Below, one piece after another: positions 789 to 63,444 of a DNA stretch of 64,000 bases; the stretch's first letter is position 1; every line of letters starts with the position of its first letter. The position numbers and the translations under genes were made by a program. Location: assembly GCA_965199495.1 (NCBI GenBank), contig CBDASK010000003.1, positions 608,001-672,000 on the forward strand. Direction: 5' to 3'. The notes beneath the pieces are model-generated. The model had not been told where the DNA came from and did not search any database. It saw only the letters and a program-made list of their open reading frames with translations. This DNA is from Abditibacterium sp. Lineage in GTDB: Bacteria > Armatimonadota > Abditibacteriia > Abditibacteriales > Abditibacteriaceae.

Positions 789-2768
789 ATGCAAACACCC
801 AACGAAAGCGCGCCCATAGCCCCAAATATGGCCTCGAAAAACGTGCTTGTCCAGCGTCCGCCGTTTCGCTGGTTGCGCGCCTACGCGTTCGATCCGAGTT
901 TCGCCCTGCAATTGGAAACCGCCATCGTCAACGCGGTCACGTTCAAAGTCCCGTGGGAATTCGCGGCGCCCACAAAAACGAACGCGGTTCCCAATCGCCC
1001 ACTCGAAAGCGAATCTGATTTTCTCCAGCCGGGGCCGGTCGGCGAATATCTGGAAGTCGTGGATTTCGATCCGGCCTCCAACTGTTTTTATCAGCCGGTG
1101 GATTTGAATCATCCGTATTTGCTGGCGCAAGATGGGCTGGCGCCTTCGTTGGGCAACCCGCAATTTCACCAGCAGATGGTTTACGCCGTCGCCATGACGA
1201 CCATCGGCAATTTCGAGCGCGCGTTGGGGCGGCGCGCGTTGTGGTCACCGCACGTTACGCCCGACAAAAGCGAAGAATTCGTGCGCCGTTTGCGCGTTTA
1301 CCCGCACGCTTTGCGCGAGGCCAACGCGTTTTATAGTCCCGACAAAAAAGCGCTTTTGTTCGGCTATTTTCCGGCGACGGCGGCGCAAGACGGCAACTTG
1401 CCGGTTGGCATGGTGTTCACCTGTCTGTCGCACGACATTATCGCGCACGAGACGACGCACGCCTTACTTGATGGGATGCAGCGCCGTTTTATCGAGCCGA
1501 GCAACCCCGACGTTTTGGCGTTTCACGAAGGGTTTGCCGACATCGTGGCGCTGTTTCAGCATTTCAGTTTGCCCGAAGTTTTGCGCCATCAAATCGCGCG
1601 CACGCGCGGCGATTTGCGCCAGCAAAGTCTGCTCGGACAAATGGCCGTCGAGTTCGGCGGCGCGACCGGACATTATGGCGCGCTGCGCGATGCCATCGGC
1701 AGAATTGATCCAGAAACGCACGAGTGGACTGCGACGAAACCCGATGCAACTGCGCTGCAAAGCGAGTTCGAGCCGCACACGCGCGGCGCGATTTTAGTCG
1801 CCGCCGTTTTCGATGCGTTTTTGTCTATCTACGGCTCGCGCGTGGCTGACCTGCTGCGGCTGGCGACGAGCGGGAGCGGCGTGTTGCCGCAGGGCGAAAT
1901 CCATCCCGATTTGGTGAACCGCCTGGCCATCGAAGCCTCCAAATCGGCGCAACACATTTTGACGATGTGCATTCGCGCGCTCGATTATTGCCCGCCGACC
2001 GACATCACTTTCGGCGAATTTTTGCGCGCGCTGATTACCGCCGACTACGATCTGGTGCGCAACGATGACCGAGGCTATCGCATCGCGGTCATCGAAGCGT
2101 TTCGGCGACGCGGCATCTCGCCGCGCGAAGTGCGCACGATTTCCGAAGAGAGTCTGCGCTGGAAATGCCCCAATCCGTGGGATTATGAACACACCCGTTT
2201 CGAGGAGGTTGAGGCGCTGCTCAAACCGCTGGAAATCTGGAATTTGAAAAGCGACCGCCGCGAGATATGGGAGCGCAATCGAGCCGCGTGCGAAGAGTTG
2301 CGCAAAGTCATTGATAGCCGCCGTGTGCCGGAAGCCGATCTCAAAGAAAACCCCAACGCTCGCATGGTGATGGGATTGGATTTGGGGCAGGACGCGCCGC
2401 CGTTTATCGTCGAATCCATTCGGCCCGCGACGCGCATCGGGCCAGACGGGCAAATGCAACGCGATTTCATCGTGCAGGTGACGCAGCAACGCGAAGAAAT
2501 TTTGCGCAACGATCCCGATCCGGAACGCGTGGTGAAATTCATCTTTCGCGGTGGCTGCACGCTCATCATCAGCGCCGAAGATTACGAAGTGCGTTACTGC
2601 GTCATCAAAAGTTTCCGCTCCGAATCGCGTTTGGAACGCCAACGCAGCTGGCTCGAAGGCCGCAGCGACGCCTCGCTGGCGGTCACCTATTTCGGTAGCG
2701 CACTCTTGGGCCAACAGCGCGAACCGTTCGCGCTCTTGCATCGCACCCTGGAGGACGAAAAACCATGA
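789..2768 (+). CDS. Cytoplasmic M4/M36-like (gluzincin) zinc metallopeptidase
   Basis: HETTH zinc motif, downstream FHEGFADIVAL (third ligand E) and EPHTRG. No signal peptide apparent. Confidence 0.8.
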   Translation: MQTPNESAPIAPNMASKNVLVQRPPFRWLRAYAFDPSFALQLETAIVNAVTFKVPWEFAAPTKTNAVPNRPLESESDFLQPGPVGEYLEVVDFDPASNCFYQPVDLNHPYLLAQDGLAPSLGNPQFHQQMVYAVAMTTIGNFERALGRRALWSPHVTPDKSEEFVRRLRVYPHALREANAFYSPDKKALLFGYFPATAAQDGNLPVGMVFTCLSHDIIAHETTHALLDGMQRRFIEPSNPDVLAFHEGFADIVALFQHFSLPEVLRHQIARTRGDLRQQSLLGQMAVEFGGATGHYGALRDAIGRIDPETHEWTATKPDATALQSEFEPHTRGAILVAAVFDAFLSIYGSRVADLLRLATSGSGVLPQGEIHPDLVNRLAIEASKSAQHILTMCIRALDYCPPTDITFGEFLRALITADYDLVRNDDRGYRIAVIEAFRRRGISPREVRTISEESLRWKCPNPWDYEHTRFEEVEALLKPLEIWNLKSDRREIWERNRAACEELRKVIDSRRVPEADLKENPNARMVMGLDLGQDAPPFIVESIRPATRIGPDGQMQRDFIVQVTQQREEILRNDPDPERVVKFIFRGGCTLIISAEDYEVRYCVIKSFRSESRLERQRSWLEGRSDASLAVTYFGSALLGQQREPFALLHRTLEDEKP

Positions 2769-62322: not shown

Positions 62323-63444
62323 ATGTCTCGCGCTCTAGTTTTGGTTCTCGATTCGGTCGGCTGCGGCGCCGCGCCCGACGCCGCTCGCTACGGCGACGCA
62401 AATGCCAACACGCTCGGACATATTCTGGCGGCGTATCCCAATTTAGAAATTCCTCATTTGACCGATTGGGGATTGGGCAAAATTCTGGAAATTCGCGAAA
62501 ACGCCCGCCAAATCGCGGCGATTCTCAGCCCGCAGTCGGCGGGCAAAGACACGACATCGGGCCATTGGGAATTGATGGGCGCCGCGCTAAGCGAACCGTT
62601 CGCGACCTTCGATCCGATTCCGTCGCAACTGCGTGAACAACTCGAAAACGCGACCGGCGAAACCTTTATCGGCGGCTACGCGGCGTCGGGCACGGCGGTT
62701 TTGGACGAATTGGGCGCGCAGCATTTGGCAACCGGCAAACCGATTCTTTACACCAGCGCCGATTCGGTTTTGCAAATCGCCGCGCACGAAGAAACGTTCG
62801 GATTGGAGCGGCTTTACGGCGTTTGCGAGCGCGCCCGAAAAATCGCCGACAGTTGGCGCATTGGACGCGTTATCGCGCGTCCATTCGTCGGCCTAAACGG
62901 CGATTGGCAACGCACACCCAACCGCCGTGATTATTCATTGTTTCCGCCGCGCACTGTTCTCAATGCGCTGTGTGATGCGGGCGTTCCCACGCTCGGCATC
63001 GGCAAAATCAGCGATATTTTCGCGGGCAGCGGCATCGGCGAATCCCTTCCGACCCAATCGAACGCGGCAGGCATGGAAATAATCGCGCGCGAGTGGCCAA
63101 AGCGTCAGGGTTTAATCTTCGCCAATCTGGTAGATTTCGATTCGCTCTACGGCCACCGCCGCGACGTGGCTGGTTATGCCGACGCACTCGAACAGTTCGA
63201 TGTGTGGCTGGGCGAATTTCAATCGCAAATTCAGCTCGATGATTTAGTGATAATCACCGCCGATCACGGCAACGATCCGACGATGCCGGGCACTGACCAC
63301 ACGCGCGAAAACGTGCCTCTATTGATGGCGTATCGCGAGCAAAATCGTTGGCTGGGACGACGCGAGAGATTCGCCGATGTCGCCGCGACAATCGCGCATT
63401 ATTTCGGCGTCGAATGGAAAAACGGGCGCTCAATGATTGAATGA
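62323..63444 (+). CDS. deoB: Phosphopentomutase
   Basis: LDSVGCG, GKDTTSGHWE, YTSADSVLQIAAHE, NLVDFDSLYGHRRD and ADHGNDP. Confidence 0.95.
   Translation: MSRALVLVLDSVGCGAAPDAARYGDANANTLGHILAAYPNLEIPHLTDWGLGKILEIRENARQIAAILSPQSAGKDTTSGHWELMGAALSEPFATFDPIPSQLREQLENATGETFIGGYAASGTAVLDELGAQHLATGKPILYTSADSVLQIAAHEETFGLERLYGVCERARKIADSWRIGRVIARPFVGLNGDWQRTPNRRDYSLFPPRTVLNALCDAGVPTLGIGKISDIFAGSGIGESLPTQSNAAGMEIIAREWPKRQGLIFANLVDFDSLYGHRRDVAGYADALEQFDVWLGEFQSQIQLDDLVIITADHGNDPTMPGTDHTRENVPLLMAYREQNRWLGRRERFADVAATIAHYFGVEWKNGRSMIE

Follow-up and report, generated by a model that had tools for sequence, protein, structure and literature searches.

Short DNA words iterated throughout a genome are documented as uptake-sequence systems in two proteobacterial families, HIP1 (highly iterated palindrome 1) being a partial third case. 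The DNA uptake sequence (DUS) of the Neisseriaceae is described with its receptor ComP and with eight or more dialects, and the uptake signal sequence (USS) of the Pasteurellaceae with the predicted receptor ComN (10.1101/2025.10.24.684340, PMC2817400, PMC7811141, PMC1939737); their imprint on tripeptides and on the proteome is described in PMC2817400. HIP1 (GCGATCGC, cyanobacteria) is highly iterated, lies within genes, is evenly spread and is linked to transformation (PMC13756078, 10.1101/2024.09.10.611283), which it aids in a partly Chi-like manner according to the latter source. The subject of the present work is the word CGTGGCTG (other-strand form CAGCCACG), noticed in a stretch of 64,000 nucleotides of an Abditibacterium sp. 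contig, hereafter the window, and comparable to DUS/USS and HIP1 in its genomic imprint. The genome that holds the window is called G000 (three contigs, 4.81 Mb in total, of which the window's contig represents 4.72 Mb; 95% complete), and G001 onward are other genomes of the Abditibacteriaceae (27 in the family, 221 in the phylum). Among named records, the nearest are those of Abditibacterium, with 94% identity at best. The word is real and, as far as our literature search reached, new: no description of it for this family was found in the literature searched, most subscription journals and supplements lying outside its scope. Its strand-wise tiling is the main new result reported here.

The likeness to DUS/USS extends to the length (9-11 bp), the thousands of copies (about one per 1-1.5 kb), the use of all reading frames, the lack of polarity, the tripeptide imprint, the depletion in acquired DNA, the dialects between genera, the terminator-like inverted pairs of one relative (G017) and the competence machinery of G000 (PilQ and ComF not confirmed). 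The differences are as marked. The sequence and the phylum are unrelated; the word of G000 is coding-rich with few intergenic pairs, whereas about half of the DNA uptake enhancing sequences (DUES) lie in terminators; the strands of G000 are tiled separately up to 1 kb and those of a DUS control are not at 150-1000 bp; the dialects include perfect palindromes, and only 10 of the 27 family genomes carry a word. The intergenic and terminator pairs typical of DUS/USS are a feature of G017 and not of G000. We do not file the word under DUS/USS because G000 lacks both the intergenic enrichment and the orientation-blind spacing, and because uptake is here a deduction. Two other dialects of the family, CGAGTACTCG and AAGTACTT, are HIP1-like palindromes; the word of G000 differs from HIP1 in that it is non-palindromic and is matched by none of the four methylases profiled.

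Between positions 1841 and 63172 of the window, the word occurs 43 times (23 copies on the + strand and 20 on the - strand), versus a mean of 2.19 and a maximum of 7 in 100 shuffles, and its 12-mer form GCCGTGGCTGCT occurs 11 times, versus none in the shuffles. The span and both counts of the first-pass annotation are thereby reproduced, as are all 11 coordinates of the 12-mer. Thirty-nine copies lie inside called genes and four outside, and the chromosome-wide rate predicts 41.8 copies for the window, which therefore holds nothing exceptional. In the whole genome, 3091 copies make CGTGGCTG the top-ranked 8-mer under Markov models of order 2 to 5 (expectations of 252, 237, 436 and 1428). On the basis of our own gene calls (3927 genes, 1909 of which carry the word), 91% of the copies are coding, with a density of 0.71 per kb versus 0.31 per kb between genes. 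The 2827 coding copies exceed 11-fold those of ten within-gene synonymous shuffles (239-292, mean 263) and 4-fold those of five codon-pair resamplings (634-679, mean 656), the enrichment being found in all six classes of frame and orientation (3.5- to 24-fold). It therefore persists against codon-preserving and Markov controls alike, and is confined neither to the window nor to one paralogue family. The claim that the word forces GCT and GCA codons is borne out by the third bases of the alanine codons, which are GCT 1226, GCA 555, GCC 1325 and GCG 162 within the word versus GCG 78454, GCC 49401, GCT 13941 and GCA 8310 elsewhere in genes. The imprint is visible in the proteome, where VAA, AVA, AAT and ATA rank among the top tripeptides. 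The logo reads CG[C/G/A]CGTGGCTG, after which C and T are weakly preferred. CG.CGTGGCTG is found 2180 times, and variants with a single base altered at the G, G or C of the core number 4-54 copies each. The 12-mer, put forward as the form of the motif, is common, but in view of this consensus it is one among several common forms.

The copies are tiled on each strand separately. In G000, the observed/expected ratio of same-orientation pairs rises from ~0.1-0.3 at distances under 300 bp to 0.35 (300-500 bp), 0.5 (500-750 bp) and finally 1 past 1.5 kb; copies of opposite orientation are independent, save for an excess at 8-20 bp, and four control 8-mers show no same-strand avoidance. Under a null model in which the proteins are held fixed and the sites are drawn at random from the synonymous opportunities, 120 same-strand pairs are observed at 40-500 bp versus 430 expected, and 383 opposite-strand pairs versus 411. 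A synonymous opportunity is used in 3% of the cases (11/335) when a same-strand copy lies within 100 bp and in 45% (650/1432) when the nearest same-strand copy is 2-4 kb off, its use amounting to 22-31% whatever the opposite strand carries. A saturating model gains 404 in log-likelihood from same-strand copies, 4 from opposite-strand copies and 151 from copies on either strand, with a scale of ~550 bp. The control, consisting of the unpaired DUS in 800 kb of one Neisseria gonorrhoeae chromosome, gives 104 same versus 109 opposite pairs at 150-1000 bp, where G000 gives 395 versus 809 (72 versus 131 in an 800-kb subset); at 46-150 bp the DUS pairs are 7 versus 25, so that a short-range asymmetry exists in DUS too. 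These distributions suggest that the value of the word saturates over ~1 kb and that the word is seen on one strand or in one direction at a time, and the spacing signature speaks against an orientation-blind reader. The nucleoid or repair protein site suggested by the first-pass annotation is accordingly disfavoured in its nucleoid version, that of a duplex site read regardless of orientation, because the strands are tiled separately.

The tiling is accompanied by a lack of replication polarity. With the origin of G000 placed from dnaA and the third-position skew, the word is distributed 1594:1489 between leading and lagging strands, while in the same replichores the control GGGCAGGG, which we take to resemble the FtsK orienting polar sequences (KOPS), is distributed 197:28; a polarity of the classical Chi or KOPS type is thereby ruled out. 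The word is also depleted in foreign DNA, as the first-pass annotation would have it, with 2 copies versus 16 expected on a plasmid-like contig, 6 versus 42 on a phage-like contig and 29 versus 87 in islands of the comM region. The 16S, 23S and 66 tRNA/tmRNA genes hold no copy, each being too short for significance alone. In the comM region (G000 C3:1120703-1254653), ~130 kb of DNA poor in the word is enclosed by three short C-terminal pieces of comM and a single full-length comM, which is the pattern expected of tandem islands inserted at comM. Many restriction-type palindromes are avoided 25- to 100-fold in G000. Among the restriction-type words, CTAG is found at 0.04 of the expected number, GTAC at 0.11, GGACC at 0.03, and CGGCCG, CTCGAG, CCCGGG, CCGCGG, GAGCTC, GGGCCC and TTCGAA at 0.01-0.02; GTAC is almost lacking in G016 (1 versus 172). 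This avoidance is consistent with a strong sequence-dependent filtering of DNA, but it is no proof of transformation.

Within the phylum, VCGTGGCTG is enriched in three of the 221 genomes, G000 (2956 copies), G004 (3426) and G011 (2548), which form one clade (quick ComEC tree, support 100), and reaches at most ~100 per Mb in the remaining ones. In G011 orthologues, 45 of 64 G000 sites are exact, and the silent codons at word sites are identical in 144 of 160 cases versus 105.5 expected. In G004 orthologues, 23 of 86 sites are exact, and in word-less congeners 1 of 156. Against these congeners, amino-acid identity at the word codons is below expectation (239/476 versus 310); variable positions and changes in the proteins may both contribute. 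The dialect of G004 is distinct, G[G/A]ACGTGGCTG[G/C]T[G/A]T. In gapless alignments, 75% of the 20 coding sites private to G004 show G at -3 and 65% show A at -1, while 84% of the 63 sites private to G000 show C at -3; GGACGTGGCT is present 25 times in G004 orthologues versus 0 in the G000 counterparts, and some sites common to both genomes are edited, in register, towards the G004 form. The G004 word sits in GTAG-tagged inverted doublets (35 in 240 kb, versus 1 in 240 kb of G000). The arm of these REPIN-like doublets is GTAGGACGTGGCTGGTGTC, at ~one per 7 kb, with no cognate RAYT transposase found, and one complete arm persists in G000, ~3 kb upstream of dnaA.

Other words take the place of CGTGGCTG elsewhere in the family, 10 of whose 27 genomes, in three genera, carry the CGTGGCTG core, CGAGTACTCG, AAGTACTT or GTACGGTCGA; no dispersed word was found in samples of 14-165 kb of 14 others, and G001, G003 and G005 were sampled over a few kb, so that word-less means here that none was found at the sampled depth. 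CGAGTACTCG has 1834-3166 sites in G020, G022, G024 and G042 and 0-6 in the other 23 family genomes. It is a HIP1-like palindrome, (W)TCGAGTACTCGA(W), whose exact 10-mers are evenly spaced and enriched between genes. AAGTACTT is found 2965 times in G014 and 2725 times in G018, versus 16-20 in three others; G014 uses the palindrome form TGCAAGTACTTGCA, while G018 favours the palindrome CAAAGTACTTTG (1231 copies versus 11 in G014). CAAAGTACTTTG also forms clusters (18 sites) on contigs C26, C30, C50, C59, C63 and C77 of G041; these contigs may be foreign or mis-binned, and such words could serve as binning tags. GTACGGTCGA has 2981 copies in G017 versus 3-7 in four others. There the word, RRGTACGGTCGA (2981 10-mers), is the most DUS-like of the family: most copies form hairpins in a head-to-head arrangement, often with A/T runs beside them, and 47 of 59 pairs lie outside long open reading frames. 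AAGTACGGT of G017 is one base off the H. influenzae USS core, probably by chance. The respective words of G004, G014 and G020 are enriched between genes, and GTAC is contained in three dialects. Palindromes and doublets place one copy on each strand and would therefore fit the tiling rule; the palindromes of G020 are themselves spaced apart (1 pair versus 15.6 at 40-150 bp).

The competence genes of G000 comprise comEC, comEA, dprA, pilB, two pilT, pilC and pilD, along with a cluster of pilins and a comM-family gene of full length. Together with the codon independence, the lack of polarity, the conservation in a sister species, the depletion in foreign DNA and the dialects, they uphold the first-pass annotation in its claim of a lineage-specific DNA-level signal. 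The link to transformation, the single-strand step, the reader and, more generally, everything concerning the function of the word are what we infer from this imprint.

The model we propose, with a probability of about 45%, is that of a self tag spread by transformation drive, the reading of which is single-stranded or directional. The type IV pilus and ComEA would pull in the DNA of kin, one strand of which would enter via ComEC. A putative sequence-specific factor would favour the strand bearing the word 5'->3', by choice at import, by halted degradation or by recombinase loading, and word-bearing alleles would overwrite word-less alleles because this reader favours the strand that carries the word. 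The gain of a new copy would be large if its own strand has no copy within ~1 kb and near zero beside a same-strand copy, copies on the other strand being without effect. A shift in the specificity of the reader would lead to the rewriting of the genome in a new dialect, and palindromic words and inverted doublets would serve both strands at once. According to PMC7811141, only the 3'-leading strand passes ComEC, and drive alone can build such distributions without a fitness benefit.

Several observations weigh against this model. Uptake is orientation-independent in H. influenzae as described in PMC1939737, and since known uptake sequences act in this manner, the model needs a step undescribed for DUS/USS. 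The competence genes do not discriminate, because the word-less genomes have comEC (27 of 27 family genomes), comEA (26 of 27) and the pilin cluster (all 20 loci fetched, two of them partial) as well. No reader was found among the candidates profiled, i.e. methylases, a nuclease-helicase, Y1 transposases, pilins and comEC/comEA. The strand tiling is firm only for G000: the samples of G011 (same 22 versus opposite 32 at 46-500 bp, P=0.10) and G004 (6 versus 11, P=0.18), of 220-240 kb, lean alike and are not significant. The conservation anticipated at synonymous sites, present in G011, is at background in G004 (117/189 versus 114). Finally, the spacing cannot tell a single-strand step of transformation from a directional step of chromosome repair.

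The candidates were set aside on their distribution. comEC and comEA, near-universal in the family, are rejected as discriminating readers; in G012, each seems split by a ~27-kb insert (C1:1340262/1369616 and 2708405/2735029). The 1421-aa nuclease-helicase, present in word-less G016 and missing from G020, G022 and G014, does not follow the word, and neither do the loci and flanking repeats of the Y1/RAYT transposases. Among the methylases, G004 lacks an orphan RsrI-like enzyme that 11 of the 17 genomes with no known word have intact; the two-subunit IIG-like and the MmeI-like enzymes have no close match in G004 or G011; and a Type ISP-like enzyme is in fragments in G004, while its G011 version has a different middle part. 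The orphan RsrI-like N6/N4 methyltransferase (G000 C3:1807692-1808396) is found at 58-91% identity in 20 of the 27 family genomes; two others have a broken gene and five have none.

The alternatives are taken in falling order of probability. Chi is a short, non-palindromic site of RecBCD/AddAB, and the word, likewise short and non-palindromic, resembles it in length (8-11 bp) and in density, and its spacing suggests an orientation-dependent reading. An unlikely alternative, which nevertheless survives best, is a Chi-like chromosome-repair site of another machine, whose resecting or translocating enzyme would stop at the oriented word; two-ended breaks would need both orientations, and gene conversion between chromosome copies would drive the word without uptake. 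An orientation-specific saturation over ~1 kb is precisely the prediction for a directional stop signal, and the depletion in foreign DNA also agrees with it. Against it, G000, 95% complete, gives no match to the RecC family (E. coli control positive), a single UvrD-family helicase and only two PD-(D/E)XK hits, unrelated to AddAB, and the sole nuclease-helicase candidate is the one rejected above. Replication polarity is lacking though the replichores are detectable, and the palindromic dialects and terminator-like doublets are un-Chi-like. The word is not classed as Chi itself because it has no polarity and RecBCD/AddAB were not found.

Somewhat more doubtful is a classical uptake sequence, read as a duplex by a minor pilin or pilus-tip protein analogous to ComP/ComN, whose oriented binding would fix the imported strand. 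Density, lack of polarity, proteome imprint, foreign-DNA depletion, dialects and the terminator-like pairs of G017 all speak for it, as does the duplication of the PilX-type gene of the pilin cluster in G000, G004, G022 and G041. This duplication does not track the word, however, the DUS control differs from G000 in its spacing at 150-1000 bp, and the word is coding-rich, not intergenic: of the 4533 7-mer sites of G000, few form inverted pairs between genes (26 pairs). Most minor pilins are also less conserved within the clade (41-80%) than pilD and ComEC (77-95%). The ComP family PF16732 has no match in G000, and the control genomes gave none either. The PilX-type pilus-tip genes of G000 (C3:872853-880963) are a tandem pair encoding ~1300 aa each with a divergent middle, beside which lies a 597-aa pilin-like gene only 41-49% identical among close kin. 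A model of the large PilX-type protein (first 1190 aa) has a mean pLDDT of 66.8; Foldseek gave no match at E<=0.001, the VIA-align matches were all of a generic beta-barrel or sandwich kind (best Z 9.5 over 75 residues), and the Atlas hits were <0.9 or unnamed. These outcomes are neutral as to DNA binding.

We regard as improbable a methylation mark of the HIP1 or Campylobacter kind, placed on one strand of the asymmetric word or on both strands of the palindromes and guiding the choice of strand in repair or transformation. Methylase sites are usually shorter than this word. Of the 12 methylase candidates recognized by motif in G000, four were profiled and none tracks the word, three others adjoin restriction nucleases, and the genome avoids GTAC (0.11 of expected). 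In favour of such a mark, a one-strand-methylated asymmetric site would be strand-independent by construction, three dialects share the tetramer GTAC, and HIP1 works through methylation as described in 10.1101/2024.09.10.611283 and PMC13756078.

The elements known as repetitive extragenic palindromic (REP) sequences and their hairpin doublets (REPINs) are GTAG-tagged, extragenic, and associated with RAYT (REP-associated tyrosine) transposases. It is quite improbable that a domesticated HUH transposase, acting on single strands, reads the word as a relic of a REP arm that would have spread first as doublets and then by point mutation. The G004 word does form the core of a GTAG-tagged arm in inverted doublets between genes, and one RAYT family of G000 and G004 has repeats sharing GTGGCTGC with the word, but the doublet flanks none of the 6 (G000) or 8 (G004) Y1-transposase loci as their own repeat, and word-bearing G017 has no PF01797 match. 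In G000 the word is 91% coding and of in-register origin, with no cognate RAYT, and its intergenic and coding logos are alike, neither showing a GTAG tag or a hairpin. A by-product of amino-acid or codon-pair usage, or of a single repeat or paralogue family, can be dismissed: the two commonest frames do give Ala/Val/Thr-rich peptides and four window sites do lie in paralogues, but the word stands 11-fold above synonymous shuffles and 4-fold above the codon-pair model, uses rare GCT/GCA codons, occurs in 1909 genes and between genes, and is missing from 218 of the 221 phylum genomes.

The self tag that we favour touches upon a long debate, that of drive versus selection in the spread of such words and of the origin of their dialects. 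Sister species with and without a word, four words that look unrelated and a dialect caught in mid-shift (G004 versus G000/G011) are all found in this family, and the different words of sister genera, combined with the strand-wise spacing, point to a protein reading a tag of self one strand at a time. We put forward, tentatively, an unrecognised class of strand-read self words: a patchily distributed, specificity-switching protein would read 8-14 nt on DNA that is single-stranded or tracked in one direction, and would depend neither on ComP/ComN nor on RecBCD/AddAB or methylation. Drive would rewrite whole genomes and the proteins they encode in no more than the age of a sub-genus; each strand would become tiled at ~1 kb, and terminators and REP doublets would be enlisted to carry the word on both strands. 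The word-bearing Abditibacterium are a small, uncultured group; in practice, the word could help to transform members of a phylum for which genetic tools are scarce.

The copies of the window are listed in Table 1. The peptides attributed to them earlier are right (AVAA, QAATA at 18141, DSSHG at 42603, GSHG at 4120, RSHG at 8129), and the copies at 35818 and 53499 both lie outside called genes. The paralogous sites exist and are four rather than two (AVAA at 5914, 6997, 8594 and 9948, in genes 39-49% identical to each other). The low-GC island holds no copy, as had been noted, but the 2.2-kb gap alone is unremarkable because the mean spacing is 1.5 kb.

Table 1. Copies of the word, and the low-GC island, in the window
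Feature	Position	Strand
Word in gene (RVAD)	1841..1848	+
Word in gene (AWLA frame)	3105..3112	+
Word antisense in gene (GSHG)	4120..4127	-
12-mer form, AVAA, four-gene paralogue family	5912..5923	-
Word, 106 bp from 5912 copy, opposite orientation	6020..6027	+
Word, AVAA, paralogue family	6997..7004	-
Word antisense in gene (RSHG)	8129..8136	+
12-mer form, AVAA, paralogue family	8592..8603	-
12-mer form, AVAA, paralogue family	9946..9957	-
Word, 93 bp from 9946 copy, opposite orientation	10041..10048	+
Word in gene	11266..11273	+
12-mer form antisense in histidine kinase gene (QAATA)	18139..18150	-
12-mer form outside called genes	19460..19471	-
Word antisense in gene	20940..20947	+
Word in gene (AWLW)	23150..23157	+
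Word in gene	23642..23649	-
12-mer form in gene	25149..25160	-
Word in dihydrolipoyl dehydrogenase gene	26499..26506	+
Word antisense in dihydrolipoyl dehydrogenase gene	27629..27636	-
Word antisense in gene	30693..30700	+
Word in gene	30923..30930	-
Word antisense in gene	32652..32659	+
Intergenic word	35818..35825	+
Word antisense in alanine dehydrogenase gene	39827..39834	+
Word antisense in alanine dehydrogenase gene	40739..40746	+
12-mer form antisense in gene (DSSHG)	42601..42612	-
12-mer form, gene of 42601 copy, opposite orientation, 102 bp away	42703..42714	+
Word in gene	45506..45513	+
Word antisense in hisC	46378..46385	-
12-mer form in hisC	47214..47225	+
12-mer form in DAHP synthase gene	48553..48564	+
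Word antisense in gene	48971..48978	-
Word antisense in gene	49637..49644	-
Word in gene; last copy ahead of low-GC island	51287..51294	+
Low-GC island (0.43), copy-free	51800..53300	.
Word outside called genes	53499..53506	+
Word outside called genes	53648..53655	-
Word in histidine kinase gene	54847..54854	-
Word antisense in pilin-like gene	57475..57482	-
Word antisense in aroA	59134..59141	-
Word antisense in nucleoside phosphorylase gene	61007..61014	+
Word antisense in nucleoside phosphorylase gene	61361..61368	+
12-mer form in gene	62091..62102	-
Word in phosphopentomutase gene	63165..63172	+

The only Rfam matches of the window are a tmRNA (25718-26079, - strand) and a tRNA gene (21126-21199, - strand), neither of which holds the word. 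The low-GC island contains an open reading frame resembling SocA-family antitoxins (52254-52997, - strand; E 4e-21, below the cut-off). On contig C3 of G000, a CRISPR-like repeat is present in 131 copies and several REP-like families in 25-160 copies.

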